Origin: Escherichia phage HY01
Strand: one strand, 5' to 3'
DNA length: 64,000 nt
Sequence record: NC_027349.1
The translations under genes were made by a program, and so were the position numbers. The notes under the pieces were generated by a model that did not search any database, was not told the origin of the DNA, and was given only the letters and a program-made list of their open reading frames with translations. Positions 4,443 to 29,451 of the stretch are shown piece after piece; position 1 is the stretch's first letter, and each line of letters begins with the position of its first letter.

Positions 4443-4725
4443 TCATATCCTCAATCTGTGATCTAGTAGTCTTCCAAAGAATACTAATGAGTTCATCGTT
4501 ATATGGCTGTTTTAGAATATCCCGACTTTTCTTGATAGCATATTCGTATTGAGCAAAATTATTGTTTTCAGCTGCAATCTGAGCGTGTTTATAAAGACGG
4601 TTCAGTTCGCGTTTATTTTTAGACAATAACTTATTTGCTTTTCTTTCTGCTTCAAGACGGTTCTTTTCTTCAATAGAAGAAATAAGCTTTTCCACTTCAT
4701 CATTAATTTCGGGTTTATCAGTCAT
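4408..4725 (-). CDS. Hypothetical protein (105 aa), charged/helical
   Basis: ORF track; co-oriented. Confidence 0.55.
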   Translation of the reverse strand: MTDKPEINDEVEKLISSIEEKNRLEAERKANKLLSKNKRELNRLYKHAQIAAENNNFAQYEYAIKKSRDILKQPYNDELISILWKTTRSQIEDMIDAYTRKIQAS

Positions 4726-4726
4726 A

Positions 4727-4945
4727 TTATTTCTCTAATATAAAATAAAAATCATCATCTGTTAAATGATACCGATAGTTTAATTCTACACCATTAGATT
4801 TAAAAGCGGTATCATACGGATTTTCTGGATCAATATCAATGTCAAGAGCTAAAACTTCCCTGAGATACATTTTAAGTAAATAGGGAATAGCTTCAACTTC
4901 AGGTATTTCTTCCAAGAATCCGGAGAGGTTAATCGTTAGCCTCAT
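4727..4945 (-). CDS. Hypothetical protein (72 aa)
   Basis: ORF track; immediately downstream of gene 55. Confidence 0.5.
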
Positions 4946-5486
4946 ATAAAAAATCCAAACTAGGAGAATCGTCTACAACACTTTTCTTTTCAGCCCCCGG
5001 TGTTCTATAGGTTGATTCTTCGTAATGCGTCATTTTATCGTAGATGTCTTGAATAAAAGTTTCATCTACTAACGCAACCATATCGTCGTCACGACTGTCA
5101 TAGACATTGTGAACGAAGTAACTATATTTCTTTGCAACTTCCTTACGTTCTTTTTTAATACGTTGGACGAATGCATTAAAACAAGCTTGAGTTATATATG
5201 CATGTGGGTTTTTATATTTCGTTTCATCAAAATTATGAAGTCCCTTAATAGAAGCTTCTATACCATCTGCAATCATTTCTTGTTTCCAAGACTGGGTGTA
5301 TCCTGAAAAGTTGAAACGTTTAGATAAGCCTTCTGCAATAAGCATAATGGCTAATCCGATAGTATCATTCTGACGAACTACTTTATTTGGGTCTTTATTA
5401 TTTGCTAATTCTGTTTTCCAATCAATAATAGCTTGTAAAAGCTCTTTATTGTTTACGTAATTATATTTAGGCTTAGTTTCTGACAT
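4929..5486 (-). CDS. 55: Late-transcription sigma factor gp55
   Basis: Track ORF is 187 aa; start at second Met ([21 protein letters not shown]) gives 185 aa as in T4 gp55. Confidence 0.9.
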
Positions 5487-5566
5487 TTTCACCTCTTAGC
5501 TCAATTCATAGATCTATTATATCATAATATTTGAAGATCTATCTTAAAGCATAGAGGATGAATCAG

Positions 5567-5836
5567 CTATCTAAGTAAACAGTATGCTTGGAATACTTTC
5601 TCCATCATCTTTTTAAATTCATGAATATCTATATAATGACTAGTTAAATCAGCATGATATAAAAAGTCTAAAAACTTTTCATGTGTGCTAACATATTCGC
5701 TTTCATTTAATTCAGAAACATGGCTTTCCCAATATCCAACACCAGTCTTATTTGGGAAAAATGAAATTTTCATGTATTGGTCAACATAGAAAATGCCATA
5801 ATTTTCAATAGTAATAGAAATATTAATAAATTTCAT
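5567..5836 (-). CDS. Hypothetical protein (89 aa)
   Basis: ORF track; ATG overlaps stop of upstream ORF. Confidence 0.5.
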   Translation of the reverse strand: MKFINISITIENYGIFYVDQYMKISFFPNKTGVGYWESHVSELNESEYVSTHEKFLDFLYHADLTSHYIDIHEFKKMMEKVFQAYCLLR

Positions 5837-6630: not shown

Positions 6631-6846
6631 TTAAATTTTCCAGTTACCATTTTCATTAATGAATTTAATCCAGTCATTTACTGACCACTTGGTCGTATCG
6701 CCTTTTGGAGCAACATTTAAAGTGTATAATCCTTGTTTAAAAAGCATTCGTTTGATATTCATATTTTCCTCAGCTATAACGATAGCACTCGTTTGATTTA
6801 CGCTTAGCAACTCGTTGAGAAGTATTGTAATCAAAATCATCGTCAA
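6631..6846 (-). CDS. Hypothetical protein (71 aa); true start may be an internal Met near 6762
   Basis: ORF track; overlaps upstream ORF by 77 nt if full length. Confidence 0.4.
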   Translation of the reverse strand: MTMILITILLNELLSVNQTSAIVIAEENMNIKRMLFKQGLYTLNVAPKGDTTKWSVNDWIKFINENGNWKI

Positions 6847-7084
6847 TGTAAACTGATTTTTTCAACTTTCTTACTTCACCACGTAATTGACGATTTAACT
6901 CATCTTTAACTTCTGAATCAATGCCTTTCATTCTACGCCATTTATCAGAGCGAAAAATGTTTTCAACCATATCTTTATGACTTACACCATCAGGAGCTTT
7001 ACGCTTTCCGAAATAGTCATAATCACGAACTTTCAAGTCTTTACGACGATACGTTTTACCCATGGAGTTTAATTTCCTTAGCAA
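6770..7084 (-). CDS. Hypothetical basic protein (104 aa)
   Basis: ORF track; Lys/Arg-rich. Confidence 0.45.
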   Translation of the reverse strand: MLRKLNSMGKTYRRKDLKVRDYDYFGKRKAPDGVSHKDMVENIFRSDKWRRMKGIDSEVKDELNRQLRGEVRKLKKSVYIDDDFDYNTSQRVAKRKSNECYRYS

Positions 7085-7238
7085 CTAAACTAAATACAGC
7101 ACGGTCACAAATCATCTGTTTATGTAACTTGAGTATAAGATAATAAACTTCAAAACCGTTTACATAAGTAACACGAACAACATTACCATTAATAAAATAA
7201 TATTGTCCCTTTTTAATTTCTTTATCAACCACAACCAT
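7056..7238 (-). CDS. Hypothetical protein (60 aa)
   Basis: ORF track; preceded by an early-promoter-like element. Confidence 0.4.
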   Translation of the reverse strand: MVVVDKEIKKGQYYFINGNVVRVTYVNGFEVYYLILKLHKQMICDRAVFSLVAKEIKLHG

Positions 7239-7268
7239 ATCAATTCCTCAAAGGCAATTCATATGTTA

Positions 7269-7298
7269 ATAATACCACAGTTTGAACTTGTTGTAAAC
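7269..7298 (-). promoter_or_regulatory. T4-type early promoter (GTTTAC -35, 18-nt spacer, TATTAT -10) with upstream TTTCACAAAGTT element
   Basis: Minus-strand GTTTAC at 7298-7293 and TATTAT at 7274-7269; same extended motif recurs at least 8 times in the window. Confidence 0.5.
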
Positions 7299-7379
7299 AA
7301 CTTTGTGAAAATTATTTTAGGGAATGATAAGAAGGGAACGATAGCTTAGAATGGTAATATACAGAATGTGAGAAAGAAA

Positions 7380-7393
7380 GGCCCAAAGGGCCC
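7380..7393 (-). terminator. Hairpin GGCCC-AAAG-GGCCC
   Basis: Perfect inverted repeat 3' of nrdH. Confidence 0.4.
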
Positions 7394-7396
7394 GTC

Positions 7397-7705
7397 TTAG
7401 TCTTCTATGATATCTCTATCATATCCAAGTGAAATGAGAGTTTCTTTGAAGTGTTTAATGTTCTTTTGTCTAGAATCATTAATGAAAATGACTGGATAAC
7501 GAATGTTAAGAGATGTGAATCCAGCACGTTTAGCAAGAGATACAATCAGTGGACGATCATACTCAATCTTACCATTATTTGTAAGAACTTTATAGAAAGT
7601 AAAAGGAGCATTGAGCTCCTTTAGAAGTTTTGTAACTGATTGACATCCAGGACAACGACCTACTTCATCTGGAATTCCATAGACTTCAATCTTGTTTTGT
7701 TTCAC
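7397..7705 (-). CDS. nrdH: Glutaredoxin-like protein NrdH
   Basis: 102 aa; CPGC redox motif near N-terminus; thioredoxin-fold size; adjacent to nrdG and nrdD. Confidence 0.75.
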   Translation of the reverse strand: MKQNKIEVYGIPDEVGRCPGCQSVTKLLKELNAPFTFYKVLTNNGKIEYDRPLIVSLAKRAGFTSLNIRYPVIFINDSRQKNIKHFKETLISLGYDRDIIED

Positions 7706-24470: not shown

Positions 24471-24683
24471 TCATTTTTGTCCTGTATTTACTTTATGCCG
24501 ATGCACGGCCTTAACTTTATCAAGGTATTTTTCAAAATTTCGCAATCTAGTATAGTCTGCCGGAGATTGGTTGAGTGATACTTCTCGACGCAAAGCTGAA
24601 ATGATATTTCCAACTTCCCTACGAATTTCATCTAATTGAAGAACAGTAAGATTGCGAAGTTGCTTTTCAGTTAATTGTAGCAT
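24471..24683 (-). CDS. Hypothetical protein (70 aa)
   Basis: ORF track. Confidence 0.5.
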
Positions 24684-24725
24684 ATATACCCCTTTAGTTA
24701 GATAAACCTATTTATAACTTTTGCA

Positions 24726-25307
24726 CTAACCGAGCTTTTTAGTTAATTCATTCCAATGTTTTCTGCACAAAGAAACATAAATTTCATCACCAATACAGAT
24801 TTGATTACCTTCTTTAACTGGTGTTCCATCTTCCATTAATCGAGCCGTCATAATCGCTTTTTTACCGCAATGACAAACTGCCTTTAGTTCAATAAGTTTA
24901 TCTGCAATCGCCAAAAGTTCTTTAGAACCTTCAAATAATTTTCCAGCGAAATCAGTCCTTAGACCATAAGCCATAACAGGAACATTGTATGTATCGACAA
25001 TTCGGCTTAATTGATGCACCTGTTCAGTTTTTAAAAACTGAGCTTCATCTACAAATACGCAATGAATATCTTTTTGTGCTTCAGCCCATTTATAGAACTC
25101 AAAAATATCCATATCATCCGTAATAATATTCGCTTCCTGCTTAATTCCAATGCGAGAAACGACTTCACAGACAGAATCGCGAGTATCAATAGCAGGCTTA
25201 AGAACTAATACACCCATTCCGCGTTCTTTATAATTATGCGCAGCAGTCAAAAGAGAAGCAGATTTTCCAGCATTCATTGCTGCATAAGTAAAAATTAAAC
25301 TCGCCAT
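24726..25307 (-). CDS. tk: Thymidine kinase
   Basis: 193 aa; P-loop AAMNAGKS; C-terminal Zn-binding cysteines; length as T4 Tk. Confidence 0.93.
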   Translation of the reverse strand: MASLIFTYAAMNAGKSASLLTAAHNYKERGMGVLVLKPAIDTRDSVCEVVSRIGIKQEANIITDDMDIFEFYKWAEAQKDIHCVFVDEAQFLKTEQVHQLSRIVDTYNVPVMAYGLRTDFAGKLFEGSKELLAIADKLIELKAVCHCGKKAIMTARLMEDGTPVKEGNQICIGDEIYVSLCRKHWNELTKKLG

Positions 25308-25316
25308 ATCACCTTC

Positions 25317-25502
25317 TTAAAGCGTATTCACATAAGCTATTAATTCGTTTTCTTTCTTATCAAACCGGTCAGCAAATTCTTCTTGTTGTTCGGGAGATAG
25401 CGGGCCGTATTCATCATAAAAGGTGTTTGCTTCTGCATTCTCATCTAGAAGTTCATGGATAAGCTCAAACAATTTATCTTTTTGTTCTTTACTCAGACTC
25501 AT
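25317..25502 (-). CDS. Hypothetical acidic protein (61 aa)
   Basis: ORF track. Confidence 0.45.
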   Translation of the reverse strand: MSLSKEQKDKLFELIHELLDENAEANTFYDEYGPLSPEQQEEFADRFDKKENELIAYVNTL

Positions 25503-25668
25503 ATATTAATTTCCAGGAGTTTTAAAATAATTCGCTTTTGCTTAAATATTTCCGTAGTTAAATGGTCAGTATCTTTTTGACCGATTCCAACGGCAAAACC
25601 TTTATTAACAGCGAGTTCAATTAAATTATCAAGCTCACGTAACACTTCATATTGTAACTCAAAATTAT

Positions 25669-25896
25669 TCATTTTGGTTTACCTTCTTTAACGAAATCAG
25701 GATAAGGATAAAATCCTGAATAAAATCCTTCACCTTTATGATTGATGCATCCTTTATTAGAACAATAGCACCAATAGTCGAAATCACAGGCCATTTCATC
25801 ATTACATAAAGCAAAAACAACAGGCCATTTACACTTTTCACAATGGGCATTTTTAAGAATACTAGTTTGGCTCATAACCATGTAACCTTTAAGCAA
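25669..25896 (-). CDS. Cys-rich small protein (75 aa), possible zinc binding
   Basis: Nine Cys including CEKCKW and CYCSNKGC. Confidence 0.45.
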   Translation of the reverse strand: MLKGYMVMSQTSILKNAHCEKCKWPVVFALCNDEMACDFDYWCYCSNKGCINHKGEGFYSGFYPYPDFVKEGKPK

Positions 25897-26084
25897 TATT
25901 CTTCTACATGTTGTTTACGACCTTTCCTATCAATGAAGGTATATTCAACGAATGTTCCAATATAGTCTTTATCTACATCATGAGGACTATTAATTGGGCA
26001 TTTAGTACGGCAAATGCGTTTCCATTGACGAATAATTTCCACTTTGTTTTTAGGATCAAACGGATGCGGGCAATGTACTTTCAT
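25872..26084 (-). CDS. Cys/His-containing small protein (70 aa)
   Basis: ORF track; CPHPFD...CRTKCP. Confidence 0.45.
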   Translation of the reverse strand: MKVHCPHPFDPKNKVEIIRQWKRICRTKCPINSPHDVDKDYIGTFVEYTFIDRKGRKQHVEEYCLKVTWL

Positions 26085-26535
26085 AATCCACCACTATTAA
26101 ATCAATATCAGGAGTAAACATGTCGATTAATTTAGAAACCTTATCCCAATCACCGCCAGCAATACCACAACCTATGCGTGGAATGTAAATTACTGGTTTA
26201 AACAGAAGGGTCTCTGCCTGTAGATTTAATTCTATCATGCAGTTTACTAAAGCACCATAATCAAGATTAGGACCCGGTTCGTATTGCGTATACAGGTTAT
26301 AGCATATACCAAATCCCGTAGGACTATGTTTAAAAACAATAGACATATCGCCTAATTTATCGCGAGAACCGTACTCGGTAGTAGTTTTATCTATTTCTAA
26401 AATTTTAGGATAGGCCCTCGCTAATTGACCCGCTACACCTGAACCCATAGTATGAAAGCAGTTGCACCCGTGCGCAATAATATTACCTTGAAGAAATAGG
26501 GCGACAATATCGCCCTTGATATATTTTACAATCAT
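26056..26535 (-). CDS. Macro-domain protein (ADP-ribose binding/hydrolase fold), 159 aa
   Basis: GDI...NIIAHGCNC...GSGVAGQLA...IGCGIAGG motifs typical of macro domains. Confidence 0.7.
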   Translation of the reverse strand: MIVKYIKGDIVALFLQGNIIAHGCNCFHTMGSGVAGQLARAYPKILEIDKTTTEYGSRDKLGDMSIVFKHSPTGFGICYNLYTQYEPGPNLDYGALVNCMIELNLQAETLLFKPVIYIPRIGCGIAGGDWDKVSKLIDMFTPDIDLIVVDYESTLPASV

Positions 26536-26873
26536 CTAGTACTCAATCCTCGATTATAAGAATCTACCAAACGGTCAACCATTGAATGACAAGCGGCTTT
26601 ATCTTTCTCCTCCGCAACTGAACATTCTAAGGTATTCCACTTTTTAGCATATCGTTTTAATAAAGTATCGTTCTTGTATCTACTTGATTTATCTCTTTCT
26701 CCGTCTTTATATGCATATATTAATTTCTGCGCAAATTCAGCTTGACATGCTTTATTTTTCCCACAATAATCCGCGGCAGTACGGTTTACATACTCTCTAA
26801 TTTCAGTGTATGATGTATTTGCTAACGCAGAAAATGAAATTAATCCTACACATAAAACCAAAATTTTAGTCAT
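26532..26873 (-). CDS. Secreted Cys-containing protein (113 aa)
   Basis: Signal-peptide-like N-terminus MTKILVLCVGLISFSALA; four Cys. Confidence 0.55.
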   Translation of the reverse strand: MTKILVLCVGLISFSALANTSYTEIREYVNRTAADYCGKNKACQAEFAQKLIYAYKDGERDKSSRYKNDTLLKRYAKKWNTLECSVAEEKDKAACHSMVDRLVDSYNRGLSTR

Positions 26874-27411
26874 TTACTATTTCCAACAGTTTATTATTTT
26901 TAAGGTAGTTAGCCTTTTCTAGGACTTCAGAAGCATATTTAGAACCTGCTTTAACATTCCATCCCGAATTATAAGAGGATATTGCCTTTCTTATATCGCC
27001 CTTATGTATATTTAACCAATAAGAAAGTTCAATGTACGCCCAGGAAGCTGAATTGGACCGTTTATTCAACATTCTTTTTATTTCAGCATCGGTCATATTA
27101 TAACCAAGTTCCTTAACTCTTGCTCGCATGGTCGGCAAATAATTTTGGAACATTCCATAGGCATGATGCTTTGGTTTAGATTTTAAATTAACTCCGGCAG
27201 AGCTTTCTTGCCATAAAATAGCAGCCATTATATGACCTAATCCACTCTTGTGGATATTTTTGTGTGTTTTATATTTTCCATCCTTAGAAAATTGTTCCCC
27301 GAATTGATATGCGTAACGCATGTTATCGAGTTGGACATTACTGAAAGTATGCTCGGAGCTATGTGCCATCATTGAAATGGCCAATAGACCAGCGAGTAGT
27401 GCTTTTCTCAT
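26866..27411 (-). CDS. Secreted lytic-transglycosylase-like protein (SLT domain), 181 aa
   Basis: Signal peptide MRKALLAGLLAISMMAHS; catalytic-region motif ILWQESS and YNSG. Confidence 0.6.
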   Translation of the reverse strand: MRKALLAGLLAISMMAHSSEHTFSNVQLDNMRYAYQFGEQFSKDGKYKTHKNIHKSGLGHIMAAILWQESSAGVNLKSKPKHHAYGMFQNYLPTMRARVKELGYNMTDAEIKRMLNKRSNSASWAYIELSYWLNIHKGDIRKAISSYNSGWNVKAGSKYASEVLEKANYLKNNKLLEIVND

Positions 27412-27418
27412 GCTTACC

Positions 27419-27880
27419 TCATTGAGTTTTAATTACTGCTTTAGAAGCCTTTCCTGGTAAACGACGACTGTTAATAATTGCCATCCTGCACTGAAGCGAC
27501 GGGTCTTTGAACTTCGCATTAGGTTTACAAACTGTAAATCCAAGCCAAAGATTTCCATCTGTGATTTCTAAACGCCCAGGACGATATTCAACCCCATCAA
27601 TAAAATCCTCGTCAATGTCAGGACGCGGAGGCATACTCAGGAATTCATTAACTTCTAAAACATGGTCTTTTATTTTGTGGAATAATTCAAAAACATATGT
27701 CTCATCAATCTCCCGTTGAATTGCACGATCAAGAAGATGTTGAGAATATTTTAGATGAAACGATGAGACCCCTGCTGCTTTTGATGCCTCACGAATCTCA
27801 TTGTTAATTTGACGAAACTCCGACTCAAAGTGACGACGGAGCTTATTTCGACGGATAAAAACTTCTGTGTTGATAGTCAT
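27419..27880 (-). CDS. regB: Endoribonuclease RegB
   Basis: 153 aa, length as T4 RegB; position between tk region and denV; sequence matches my recollection of RegB. Confidence 0.8.
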   Translation of the reverse strand: MTINTEVFIRRNKLRRHFESEFRQINNEIREASKAAGVSSFHLKYSQHLLDRAIQREIDETYVFELFHKIKDHVLEVNEFLSMPPRPDIDEDFIDGVEYRPGRLEITDGNLWLGFTVCKPNAKFKDPSLQCRMAIINSRRLPGKASKAVIKTQ

Positions 27881-27907
27881 GTTATTCTCCTCTTAACTGA
27901 TAGAAAA

Positions 27908-27937
27908 ATTATACCACAGTCAAGAGGAAAAGTAAAC
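27908..27937 (-). promoter_or_regulatory. T4-type early promoter-like element (GTTTAC / TATAAT) upstream of regB
   Basis: Minus-strand GTTTAC 27937-27932, TATAAT 27913-27908. Confidence 0.45.
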
Positions 27938-27939
27938 AG

Positions 27940-28260
27940 TTATTCTTTAAATCTAATCAATTTATTCATAGACTTTGAAACTTCTGCACGAACCTCATGT
28001 AGGTTTTTGAGCTGTTCAAGACGCTGCTCATAGTAAGCAATTTCATCTTCTTCGAGACAGTCCTGTGAATCTTCTTTAAGATAACGTGCATAGTCCTGGA
28101 AAGCTTTACGGACTACTTCCTGGAAGTCATCAAGACTTTGAATTTTCTTAGGAGCAACAGATACACGACGAGGGGCAGTATAATACTCATAACCAAACCC
28201 TACGCTTAATTGAGCCATTAATATTTTTCCTCTGGTTGGAACACAGCACGACAAGCCCAC
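27940..28260 (-). CDS. Hypothetical protein (106 aa)
   Basis: ORF track. Confidence 0.5.
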
Positions 28261-28484
28261 ATACTGGCTTCTTTGAGTTTCGTTTTAGCAATAGTTAACT
28301 GATCGAGGCTTTCAGCATAATTCTTTGCGAATTCACAGTCTTCACAATTATCCAGTGCTTCCCAGAATTCATCATATAAAGCATCAAAGATAAGTCCTAA
28401 ACGAACTTCAGCGTCTTTGATAGCATTCACTTTACCGATTTTCTCTTCAGTGTGCGGCTTATAACCTTTAATGTCTTCAATCAT
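28218..28484 (-). CDS. Small helical protein (88 aa); in the position of T4 vs.4 (Acb2 anti-CBASS cyclic-nucleotide sponge)
   Basis: Assignment by synteny (second ORF after regB, two before the GrcA-like gene) and size only. Confidence 0.45.
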
Positions 28485-28698
28485 ATTCTACTTCCTCACC
28501 TGTTCCCAAATCATATTCAACTAAACGAATAGGCTCATGAATGCCATATCCTTGAACAGAAATTTCTGTCGTAGGATAAATTCCATTAATATCACCCATG
28601 TTCCACGCTTCATTAAATTGCTGTTCGCCTGAATTACTAAACCACTCGGCGAAAGCATTTAGCACATCTTTAGAACCTTCAATAATTATCTTTGCCAT
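28477..28698 (-). CDS. Hypothetical protein (73 aa)
   Basis: ORF track. Confidence 0.45.
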   Translation of the reverse strand: MAKIIIEGSKDVLNAFAEWFSNSGEQQFNEAWNMGDINGIYPTTEISVQGYGIHEPIRLVEYDLGTGEEVEYD

Positions 28699-29060
28699 TA
28701 CAAACTCTCAGTAAAGGTACGAGCGATAACGTCGCGCTGCTGTTCCGGAGTCAGAGAGTTAAAGCGAACTGCATATCCGGATACACGGATGGTCAGCTGC
28801 GGATATTTTTCCGGATGCTTAACTGCATCTTCCAGAGTTTCACGACGCAGAACGTTTACGTTCAGGTGTTGACCACCCTCAATTTTAACTGTAGGCTGTG
28901 TTTCAATTTCAATTTCACGGGCATGCAAACCATAGAAAATTTCTGGGTCTACAAAAGAGTCCTCTTTAAAAGTTTTAGAGACAATAATTCGTGCTTGAAT
29001 ACCGTCTTCAAAATAAATAGTACCTTTATGCGTGCCTTCAAGAATTTGATATGCTTTCAT
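28698..29060 (-). CDS. Autonomous glycyl radical cofactor GrcA/YfiD-like protein
   Basis: C-terminal [60 protein letters not shown] matches the glycyl-radical domain of E. coli GrcA as I recall it; N-terminal about 50 aa differ. Confidence 0.85.
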
Positions 29061-29070
29061 ATAACCCCTC

Positions 29071-29451
29071 TCAATTAGAAAATAAATTTATCCAAGATTG
29101 CTCTTTAATTAAAAATGGCTCAGAATCATATGCCATTAAACTTTGGGTAATTAGTCCTTTAAAAGGCCCATCAATAAATTCCATGGTAAAATATGGAATT
29201 TTATTCATTAATCTTGCATTAGGAGCAGTGCATAAAACTCTGCATCCTTTGAATACACCTTTTTGTAATTTGTATTGCTTAGGATAAAATTCACTCAAGA
29301 CGTTGTTATTTGCCAAAATTTCAAAATGATTCACCAATTTATTTTTAATAGTTTTTGGCGAAAAATAAAGATATTCGAAAAGTTGCGTGTCTGTCATCAT
29401 TGCATTCCGATTATGAAAAACTGTGGACGAGTAATACCACCAATGCAACAT
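29071..29451 (-). CDS. Hypothetical protein (126 aa; likely starts near 29397)
   Basis: ORF track; overlaps upstream ORF unless an internal Met is used. Confidence 0.45.

Follow-up and report, generated by a model that had tools for sequence, protein, structure and literature searches.

Which ADP-ribose linkage is the target of the small macrodomain protein encoded between tk.3 and vs? The question is raised by a gene of Escherichia phage HY01 (NC_027349.1), from which a stretch of 64,000 nucleotides, here called the window, was analyzed. A preliminary description of this DNA called the product a phage macro-domain protein and proposed two targets for it, the phage's own Alt/Mod modifications or DarT-like marks left on DNA by host defense. 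In the open reading frame table of the window, the gene is a 159-aa frame with an ATG start on the minus strand (Table 1), and this start fits the N termini of homologues (MIxxxIKGD). The three glycine-rich motifs quoted in the preliminary description are all present, NIIAHGCNC at residues 18–26, GSGVAGQLA at 31–39, and IGCGIAGG at 121–128. Pfam Macro (PF01661) matches over model positions 2–117 of 118 with 32 bits (E = 1.3e-7), above its gathering cutoff of 22 bits. In a sequence search of the PDB, the protein alone retrieved macrodomains with E values down to 3.7e-10, and the family profile retrieved BT1257 (3e-20), TARG1 (2e-16), SCO6735 (3e-16), and DarG (4e-11). The AlphaFold2 model, calculated for the 159-aa protein with an alignment of homologues, has alternating strands and helices, a mean pLDDT of 94.8, and a pTM of 0.89. 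Upon comparison of this predicted model with the PDB by Foldseek, the top matches were all macrodomains (probability 1.00), led by TARG1 (E = 3.6e-10, TM 0.75/0.84) and including Poa1p, BT1257, and the DarG proteins of Mycobacterium tuberculosis and Thermus aquaticus. The macrodomain match is far beyond chance, and by sequence, profile, and predicted fold the product is a macrodomain. Thus, the name given in the preliminary description is borne out, and structure prediction, which had been suggested as a check, returned the macro fold. Homologues were detected by tblastn in 2788 phage records.

The window shows 100% identity to Escherichia phage PEC04 (KR233165), a Tequatrovirus, and the gene order (tk, tk.1, a variable slot, tk.3, tk.4, vs, vs.1, regB) is that of T4 (NC_000866). 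The 159-aa protein aligns with the 155-aa T4 Tk.4 (NP_049723) over 155 aa without gaps, with 57%–58% identity and 74% positives (E = 1e-70). All family-invariant residues, including H22, N25, Q84, G122, G124, and W130, are common to both. Judged from sequence and gene order, the gene is the positional orthologue of T4 tk.4, lying between tk.3 and vs. There is nothing new in this identity, which is already known: the gene is the T4-family tk.4, lately renamed adfM, macrodomains of the Tk.4 family have long been annotated in phages, and an anti-defense role has now been assigned to the one in T4. Differences from the T4 protein include the second glycine loop, which reads IGAGIGKGNW in T4 and IGCGIAGGDW here, and a C-terminal tail four residues longer, which has low confidence in the model and overlaps the first 29 nt of tk.3. 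With Tk.4 of the Dhakavirus JS98, by contrast, the 159-aa protein shares 93% identity. The genes flanking tk.4 are 96%–100% identical to their T4 counterparts, and the island of divergence from T4 around tk.4 takes in adjacent, unrelated small genes as well. The stop codon of vs and the start codon of tk.4 overlap in the sequence ATGA, an arrangement suggestive of a common transcript for the two genes and perhaps of translational coupling between them. A promoter belonging to tk.4 itself was considered and rejected: the 12 promoter-like sites found across the region, compared with 16.7 expected, are not above chance and are no commoner than in shuffled sequence, and the scan found none immediately upstream of the gene.

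Table 1. Coordinates of the macrodomain gene, its putative active-site segments, and adjoining features in the window
Feature	Position	Strand	Basis or conservation
tk.4/adfM orthologue, stand-alone ALC1-like class (TARG1, SCO6735, Poa1p, DarG)	26056..26535	-	ORF, Pfam, identity to T4 and gene order, AlphaFold2, Foldseek
ATGA, vs stop codon overlapping tk.4 start codon	26532..26535	-	Sequence and ORF table
Codons H22-G23-C24-N25-C26	26458..26472	-	H22, G23, N25, and C26 invariant in 51 homologues
Codons M30-G31-S32-G33-V34-A35-G36, first glycine-rich (GxG) ADP-ribose-binding loop	26428..26448	-	G33 and A35 invariant; M30 and G31 at least 90% conserved
Codons N80-L81-Y82-T83-Q84	26284..26298	-	N80, Y82, and Q84 invariant in 51 homologues
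Codons P119-R-I-G122-C-G124-I-A126-G-G-D-W130, second glycine-rich (diphosphate-binding) loop	26146..26181	-	P119, G122, G124, and W130 invariant; coordinates confirmed on the sequence
tk.3 orthologue, 70 aa, 4 Cys, DUF7202	25872..26084	-	Pfam E = 4.8e-36; 89% identical to T4 Tk.3
75-aa ORF, 7 Cys, Pfam "Phage zinc binding domain" (PF23895)	25669..25896	-	E = 3.3e-29, residues 8–75

The genetics of T4 bear directly on the choice of target. A T4 transposon screen carried out on a DarTG2 host gave one significant hit, tk.4, and T4 became sensitive to DarTG2 upon clean deletion of the gene, the conditions for T4 being 30 °C and M9 glucose; the gene was renamed adfM, for anti-DarT factor Macrodomain (bioRxiv 10.1101/2025.11.20.689424). 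Reversal of DarT-like marks on DNA, one of the two options in the preliminary description, therefore has genetic support, because T4 tk.4 is needed on DarTG2 hosts. Hydrolysis by T4 Tk.4 is described in the same preprint as something that "seems likely" only. Two other macrodomains act on this type of lesion: PhiKZ gp104, a second phage protein, strips DarT2-made ADP-ribose from DNA in vitro (PMC13309987), and SCO6735 of Streptomyces removes thymidine-linked ADP-ribose from DNA (PMC9411070). On the basis of sequence, model, and analogy to these systems, the gene probably encodes the tk.4/adfM orthologue, a Gln-type macrodomain enzyme that reverses DNA ADP-ribosylation by DarT2. The anti-DarTG2 phenotype belongs to the T4 allele, whereas the allele here is diverged; by analogy, it would act like T4 tk.4 at 57%–58% identity.

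The proposed course of events during infection is as follows. The macrodomain would probably be translated from an mRNA shared with vs, and a DarTG2-carrying host would set DarT2 free. DarT2 would then ADP-ribosylate thymidines in single-stranded phage DNA and block replication. The macrodomain may hold the ADP-ribose by its two glycine-rich loops and hydrolyze the bond between ribose and thymine, restoring normal DNA, with Gln84 positioned by Asn25 as in SCO6735.

To place the active site, residue equivalences were taken from hmmalign to the family profile, which agree with the HMMER-to-PDB alignments, and conservation was scored over 51 homologues of 38%–100% identity. In TARG1, the counterpart of the loop M30–G36 is MGAGIA, and the GxG loop is part of the ADP-ribose cleft (PMC9503650). 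Q84, N25, and G124, all invariant in the family, align in hmmalign to Gln85, Asn27, and Gly128 of SCO6735, and N25 also corresponds to N23 of PhiKZ AdfM. In the HMMER profile alignment, Q84 falls on the catalytic Lys84 of TARG1 and on a Gln of BT1257; SCO6735 Gln85 is itself equivalent in position to TARG1 Lys84 and DarG Lys80 (PMC9411070). The second catalytic residue of TARG1, Asp125, is replaced by A126. From these alignments, the active site of the Tk.4-type protein is of the Gln type, as in SCO6735, and not of the Lys type of DarG and TARG1. Mutation of these residues has been informative elsewhere. Removal of thymidine-linked ADP-ribose by SCO6735, which is inactive on the guanine adduct, was abolished by Q85A and nearly abolished by N27S (PMC9411070), and the asparagine mutant N23A of PhiKZ AdfM showed lowered activity (PMC13309987). 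Analogous to SCO6735, catalysis here would depend on Gln84. In SCO6735, the Gln has been modeled in contact with the ring oxygen of the distal ribose.

SCO6735 of Streptomyces coelicolor (PDB 5E3B) and BT1257 of Bacteroides (PDB 2FG1/2AFC) are the best PDB sequence matches. Both are stand-alone ALC1-like proteins of ∼150–180 aa in which Gln stands where DarG and TARG1 have their catalytic Lys, and both have a positioning Asn and a PRIGCGxAGGxW loop. The identity is only about 25%, and the motif HGCNC here reads HVCND there. The loop following the Gln is 5–6 residues shorter here and has no lysines: YEPGPN, as compared with HGMKTGSKGAP in SCO6735 and HGIYKDSKGLPP in BT1257. Lys89 and Lys94 of SCO6735, for which a role in DNA binding has been proposed (PMC9411070), are thus missing. 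The invariant Gly23 occupies the position of Val25 (or Ile) in SCO6735, whose backbone positions the catalytic water; the change of side chain may not matter, as the proposed role is mediated by the backbone. Human TARG1/OARD1 (PDB 4J5R/4J5S), which can also reverse DarT damage (PMC9411070), is the best structural match and shares the length class and a short loop after the catalytic position, but its catalytic dyad Lys84/Asp125 is Gln84/Ala126 here. Several points count against the proposed function. The allele is only 57%–58% identical to the T4 one that was tested, with an altered second glycine loop. The catalytic Lys found in DarG is missing from the protein, and so is the long "mobile loop" whose lysines are proposed to serve DNA binding in SCO6735 (PMC9411070).

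Yeast Poa1p ranks near the top of the matches by both sequence and fold, and this raises the alternative that the main substrates are not DNA adducts but small soluble derivatives, such as ADP-ribose-1''-phosphate (as for Poa1p), O-acetyl-ADP-ribose, or ADP-ribose-based immune signals or toxins. RefSeq and PHROGs call the family "phosphatase," the T4 record carries the note "A1pp phosphatase motif," and a comparative-genomics survey argued that phage macrodomains act mostly on low-molecular-weight, soluble ADP-ribose derivatives (PMC9503650). The H-x-C-N-C motif is nearly that of Poa1p (HGCNC here, HSCNC in Poa1p). Structures of the Poa1p mutants H23A, S30A, and F152A have been deposited; H22 aligns with His23 and T29 with Ser30, and Phe152 lies outside the aligned segments. 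A histidine at the His23 position is, however, also found in TARG1, SCO6735, and BT1257 and so does not discriminate. The "phosphatase" names were simply transferred by homology, and the only phenotype known from T4, the loss of DarTG2 resistance upon deletion of tk.4, concerns a system that modifies DNA. Moreover, both activities can coexist, as TARG1 and SCO6735 each have several substrates (PMC9411070). We regard a mainly soluble substrate as unlikely.

The resemblance to DarG, the antitoxin of DarTG2 (PDB 5M3I, 5M31/5M3E), extends to the macro fold (TM 0.74–0.75 for the predicted model) and, by inference, to a job in common, the undoing of thymidine ADP-ribosylation by DarT2. DarG has ∼330–340 aa with a C-terminal domain that binds DarT, whereas the protein here has 159 aa and matches the N-terminal macro part alone. 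The profile matches to DarG are weak but significant: the NCBIfam DarG model (NF048014) scored 27.7 bits (E = 1.5e-6), well below its equivalog cutoff of 250, over positions 2–142 of 338, and the PADLOC DarG model scored 27.5 bits (E = 5e-7), over positions 3–144 of 329. The catalytic Lys80 of DarG is absent from the 159-aa protein, with Gln84 in its place, and no DarT gene is adjacent to tk.4, the neighbors being vs and tk.3. Membership in DarG was rejected on these grounds: the score, the lack of the C-terminal domain, the change of Lys to Gln, and the lack of a DarT neighbor. A close bacterial homologue from Pelagimonas (P0094) is likewise a stand-alone gene, lying among housekeeping genes with no DarT or toxin neighbor.

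Protection need not be purely catalytic, because DarT is also inhibited when SCO6735 or DarG binds to it (PMC9411070). Carried further, this would make the phage protein a stoichiometric mimic of the antitoxin that neutralizes DarT2 mainly by binding or blocking it, with hydrolysis dispensable. In vitro, DarT is inhibited even by the catalytically dead mutants SCO6735 Q85A, DarG K80A, and TARG1 K84A, the effect being strongest for SCO6735 (PMC9411070), and AdfB of phage ICP1 counters DarT by direct binding (PMC11481870). Co-evolution with a binding partner would also fit the strong divergence of tk.4 in a locus otherwise 96%–100% identical to T4, but the diverged island spans the neighboring small genes and so resembles a product of mosaic recombination more than one of selection on tk.4 in particular. 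The DarT-binding domain of DarG is missing, the match ending at position 142 of 338, and the ADP-ribose-binding and SCO6735-type catalytic residues are invariant even in distant homologues, which points to selection on enzyme activity. Neutralization mainly by binding appears quite improbable.

Arginine-linked ADP-ribose is removed by ARH/DraG-type enzymes. The other target in the preliminary description, the phage's own Alt/Mod marks, is unlikely because Alt, ModA, and ModB modify arginine, their targets including Arg265 of the RNA polymerase alpha subunit and Arg84 of MazF (PMC8120803). In the literature consulted, the substrates reported for the macrodomain class are Glu/Asp esters, phosphate-linked ends of nucleic acids, O-acetyl-ADP-ribose, and thymidine-linked adducts on DNA, with no arginine-linked one among them (PMC9411070). 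It is true that T4-like phages encode three ADP-ribosyltransferases (PMC8120803). A related possibility is that ADP-ribose on RNA is the target, for instance that placed by mRNA-targeting defense transferases. TARG1-class macrodomains can act on phosphate-linked ADP-ribose at the ends of nucleic acids (PMC9411070), and one report describes an mRNA ADP-ribosyltransferase defense against T-even phages (PMC11618068). Nothing links tk.4 to RNA marks, however, and the gene is not reported as required in standard growth (bioRxiv 10.1101/2025.11.20.689424). Taken together, a role against Alt, ModA, and ModB marks on host proteins or against ADP-ribose on RNA is very improbable.

The comparison with the chimallivirus PhiKZ bears on the name AdfM itself. 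Like the protein here, PhiKZ gp104/AdfM is a stand-alone phage macrodomain of ∼160 aa with the conserved Asn, N23 there and N25 here; gp104 counters DarTG2, as the protein here would. In contrast, gp104 is truly DarG-like, scoring 132.9 bits with the PADLOC DarG model as compared with 27.5 here; it gives only short local BLASTP matches to the 159-aa protein (E = 0.001), and it is imported into the phage nucleus. From its sequence, the FPTK motif of gp104 would carry the DarG-type Lys. The two AdfM proteins, T4-type and PhiKZ, look like independent recruitments from different branches of macrodomains. The small new point is that the T4-type AdfM is of the Gln type, like SCO6735, and comes from a branch different from that of the PhiKZ protein of the same name. 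This matters for the design of catalytic mutants and for the transfer of annotation by name.

A broader reading, which we hold tentatively and regard as plausible rather than probable, is that Tk.4-type AdfM represents a distinct branch of compact, Gln-type, lysine-independent macrodomains that T4-like phages recruited against DarT2 in an event separate from the one that gave chimalliviruses their DarG-like, Lys-type AdfM. Such a protein would clear thymidine-linked ADP-ribose from DNA although it has no long DNA-clamp loop with lysines like that of SCO6735, and it might have a wider range, including Glu/Asp-linked ADP-ribose on proteins or soluble derivatives, or bind DarT2 directly. If true, a wider substrate range or binding of DarT2 could explain the presence of a strongly diverged allele in a near-identical locus. 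In practice, resistance to E. coli carrying DarTG2 is expected of any T4-like phage whose tk.4/adfM allele is intact, which may be of use in predicting phage host range and in therapy.

Two small Cys-rich genes accompany the macrodomain gene (Table 1). The preliminary description had placed such a pair just upstream; the pair exists, but it is upstream in plus-strand coordinates only and lies downstream of tk.4 in transcription, because the minus strand encodes all of these genes. The idea that tk.4 forms a functional module with its Cys-rich neighbors was considered and dropped, there being no sign of a specific partnership. Tk.3 (836 phage records, mostly T4-like) and the 75-aa zinc-binding-domain ORF (736 records) are largely restricted to T4-like phages, as compared with 2788 records for the macrodomain. 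In one Slopekvirus, the proximity of the zinc-binding ORF to the macrodomain simply reflects conservation of the tk locus. In the Vequintavirus LL12, the macrodomain adjoins a gene that matches nothing in Pfam, and the gene beyond belongs to another small zinc-binding family. The 75-aa ORF has no counterpart in the T4 tk–vs locus, shows no similarity to T4 Tk.2, and is unannotated in the PEC04 record (KR233165). Its true start is probably an internal ATG, at M6 or M8.

The three glycine-rich motifs noted in a preliminary description of a 159-aa phage protein are all present in the tk.4 reading frame, at residues 18–26 (NIIAHGCNC), 31–39 (GSGVAGQLA) and 121–128 (IGCGIAGG). Its identification as a phage macrodomain protein was borne out by both sequence and structure comparisons. 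The Pfam Macro model scored 32 bits (gathering cutoff 22), and a single-sequence search matched solved macrodomains with a best E value of 3.7e-10. A family profile built from 32 homologues matched BT1257 (3e-20), TARG1 (2e-16), SCO6735 (3e-16), yeast Poa1p (4e-14) and DarG macrodomains (4e-11 and 3e-9) in the PDB. The AlphaFold2 model, based on an alignment of 51 homologues, had a mean pLDDT of 94.8 and a pTM of 0.89 and was uncertain only at the last residues. Foldseek against the PDB returned TARG1 at the top (E=3.6e-10, TM 0.75/0.84), followed by Poa1p, BT1257 and the DarG macrodomains of Mycobacterium tuberculosis and Thermus aquaticus, all with a probability of 1.00. Structure prediction thus returned a macro fold, and the protein is a macrodomain by all of these tests. 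By tblastn, the family was found in 2788 of 50,697 phage records.

The gene is the orthologue of T4 tk.4. The order of genes in the window (thymidine kinase, small ORFs, macrodomain gene, vs, SLT-domain protein, RegB) is that of the T4 tk-regB region, and the two Tk.4 proteins align without gaps over 155 residues at 58% identity. The family has long been annotated, in T4 as 'phosphatase; contains A1pp phosphatase motif', and the T4 member has a published anti-DarTG2 role. In a T4 transposon library grown on DarTG2-expressing E. coli, only tk.4 emerged as a significant hit; T4 with a clean tk.4 deletion became sensitive to DarTG2, and the gene was renamed adfM, for anti-DarT factor Macrodomain (bioRxiv preprint, November 2025, 10.1101/2025.11.20.689424). 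The same preprint notes that the product resembles the DarG macrodomain of M. tuberculosis in structure; in its words, enzymatic ADP-ribose removal from DNA 'seems likely' (10.1101/2025.11.20.689424). PhiKZ gp104, the chimallivirus AdfM, strips DarT2-made ADP-ribose from an oligonucleotide and rescues cells from DarT2 (PMC13309987). Streptomyces SCO6735 removes thymidine-linked, not guanine-linked, ADP-ribose from DNA and likewise rescues cells from DarT (PMC9411070).

Given the DarTG2 sensitivity of the T4 deletion and the reactions demonstrated for SCO6735 and PhiKZ AdfM, the earlier suggestion that the protein reverses host DarT-like defence marks on DNA has experimental backing, by analogy. 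Removal of ADP-ribose from arginine is the job of ARH/DraG-type enzymes. A less probable alternative is that Tk.4 reverses RNA marks or marks made by the phage itself. For the phage's own Alt/Mod modifications, the first option of the preliminary description, this is unlikely, as Alt and ModA modify arginine (PMC8120803), which lies outside the substrates reported for the macrodomain class in the literature consulted: thymidine adducts, O-acetyl-ADP-ribose, phosphate-linked ends of nucleic acids and esters of Glu/Asp (PMC9411070). The initial observation was correct and its interpretation essentially right. Tk.4 may also act on soluble ADP-ribose derivatives, as suggested by the homology-transferred 'phosphatase' name, the resemblance to Poa1p and an argument made in PMC9503650.

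To compare active sites, SCO6735 and BT1257 sequences from PDB alignments and the PhiKZ gp104 sequence from its paper were aligned to the family profile. Gln84 aligns with Gln85 of SCO6735 and the corresponding Gln of BT1257, and in TARG1 with the catalytic Lys84; HMMER-PDB alignments agree. In SCO6735, Gln85 takes the structural place of TARG1 Lys84 and of DarG Lys80, and Q85A abolishes activity (PMC9411070). Asn25 aligns with SCO6735 Asn27, where the N27S substitution leaves almost no activity (PMC9411070), and with N23 of PhiKZ AdfM; mutation of the conserved asparagine of PhiKZ AdfM reduced activity (PMC13309987). Gly124 aligns with SCO6735 Gly128, and Ala126 stands at the place of TARG1 Asp125. 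Gln84, Asn25, Gly122, Gly124, His22 and Trp130 are invariant in the 51 homologues (38%–100% identity). Since Gln84 occupies the Lys position, and given these equivalences and the invariance, the predicted active site of the Tk.4 family is glutamine-type, as in SCO6735, and not the lysine-type of DarG and TARG1. The loop after the Gln is shorter by 5–6 residues than in SCO6735 and BT1257 and lacks the two lysines proposed as a DNA clamp in SCO6735.

In the mechanism proposed here, the window protein would bind ADP-ribose via both glycine-rich loops and hydrolyse the ADP-ribose-thymine bond in single-stranded phage DNA carrying DarT2-made thymine-ADP-ribose. Gln84, held by Asn25, would position the distal ribose for hydrolysis. 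By analogy, the window allele would act as that of T4 does, and its catalysis would be Gln-dependent. DarT is inhibited even by catalytically dead mutants of SCO6735, DarG and TARG1 (PMC9411070), so that Tk.4 may also block the toxin by binding DarT. Both toxin blocking and action on soluble derivatives can coexist with removal of ADP-ribose from DNA.

Membership in DarG was rejected: the NCBIfam DarG equivalog model, whose cutoff is 250 bits, gave a score of 27.7, with the match confined to the N-terminal macro part. The PADLOC DarG model gave 27.5 bits for the window protein, 36 for T4 Tk.4 and 132.9 for PhiKZ gp104, and BLASTP between the window protein and gp104 found short local matches only. 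PhiKZ gp104 is DarG-like and carries an FPTK motif, whereas T4 Tk.4 is Gln-type. Because of these differing scores and short matches, the two proteins named AdfM belong to different macrodomain branches, and annotation transfer by name would mix them. This split and the predicted short-loop, Gln-type site go slightly beyond the literature consulted. A close homologue in Pelagimonas phthalicica (GCA_004364805.1, L003 6001-6459; 152 aa, 40% identity) is a stand-alone gene amid housekeeping genes, and neither DarT nor any other toxin gene lies in that neighbourhood; Tk.4-type macrodomains therefore also occur outside toxin-antitoxin contexts in bacteria.

Features of the tk.4 region (window coordinates; L002 is the T4 locus)
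Feature	Position	Strand	Basis
Macrodomain ORF (tk.4), 159 aa, ATG start	26056-26535	-	ORF listing
Cys-rich ORF (tk.3), 70 aa	25872-26084	-	Pfam DUF7202, E=4.8e-36
Cys-rich ORF, 75 aa, 7 Cys	25669-25896	-	Pfam 'Phage zinc binding domain' PF23895, E=3.3e-29
Divergence island, tk.1 to tk.4	25317-26535; T4 L002:4347-5390	-	protein identity to T4
Palindrome	26498-26516		terminator-like in scan
vs.1 orthologue	26866-27411		SLT transglycosylase domain
RegB	27419-27880		Pfam REGB_T4, E=1.4e-68
Sigma-70-like site	27908-27936	-	TTTACT-17-TATAAT, extended TG

The proteins flanking the island are 96%–100% identical to those of T4 (rI.-1, rI, rI.1 and tk; vs, vs.1, regB, vs.3, vs.4 and vs.6). Inside it, tk.1 is 31%, tk.3 89% and tk.4 57% identical, and two unrelated ORFs (57 and 75 aa) fill the tk.2 slot. 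The tk.4 allele shares 93% identity with its counterpart in Dhakavirus JS98. Sequence comparison suggests mosaic replacement or exchange of a small variable island. The small Cys-rich pair previously placed just upstream does exist, but lies downstream of tk.4 in transcription, since the pair and tk.4 are all encoded by the minus strand. The T4 tk-vs locus contains no equivalent of the 75-aa ORF, its Tk.2 being unrelated; the ORF is present in 736 phage records. As its Pfam match begins at residue 8, translation of the ORF probably starts at an internal ATG and not at the listed TTG. The Cys-rich neighbours are mostly confined to T4-like phages and, in the phage records compared, showed no specific association with the macrodomain beyond conserved synteny.

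Co-transcription of tk.4 with the upstream gene vs is probable, because the vs stop codon shares nucleotides with the tk.4 start codon (ATGA) and the promoter scan found no promoter-like site directly upstream. The 3′-terminal 29 nt of tk.4 overlap the start of the next downstream gene. Promoter-like sites in 24600-29200 were not commoner than in shuffled sequence; the strongest minus-strand sigma-70-like site of the region, just upstream of regB, may drive a regB-vs.1-vs-tk.4 transcript. The GC-rich palindrome AGGGCGATATTGTCGCCCT, within tk.4 codons 7–13 (KGDIVAL), scored as terminator-like on both strands, and a 'terminator' is annotated in its neighbourhood in one related phage record. The palindrome may form a true RNA structure, or may simply follow from the conserved peptide sequence.

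Over 1.6 kb around tk.4, the sequence matches Escherichia phage PEC04 (KR233165; species Tequatrovirus hy01) with 100% identity; there the macrodomain gene is a 'hypothetical protein' only and the 75-aa ORF is without annotation. Other records give identical or near-identical proteins the name 'phosphatase' or 'macro domain protein'. Several unrelated PEC04 genes (4467-5012, 5541-5819 and 6672-7585), the vs.1 orthologue among them, are labelled 'endoribonuclease RegB domain-containing protein', and the true RegB is a 'putative site-specific RNase'. These RegB labels look like annotation-transfer errors.
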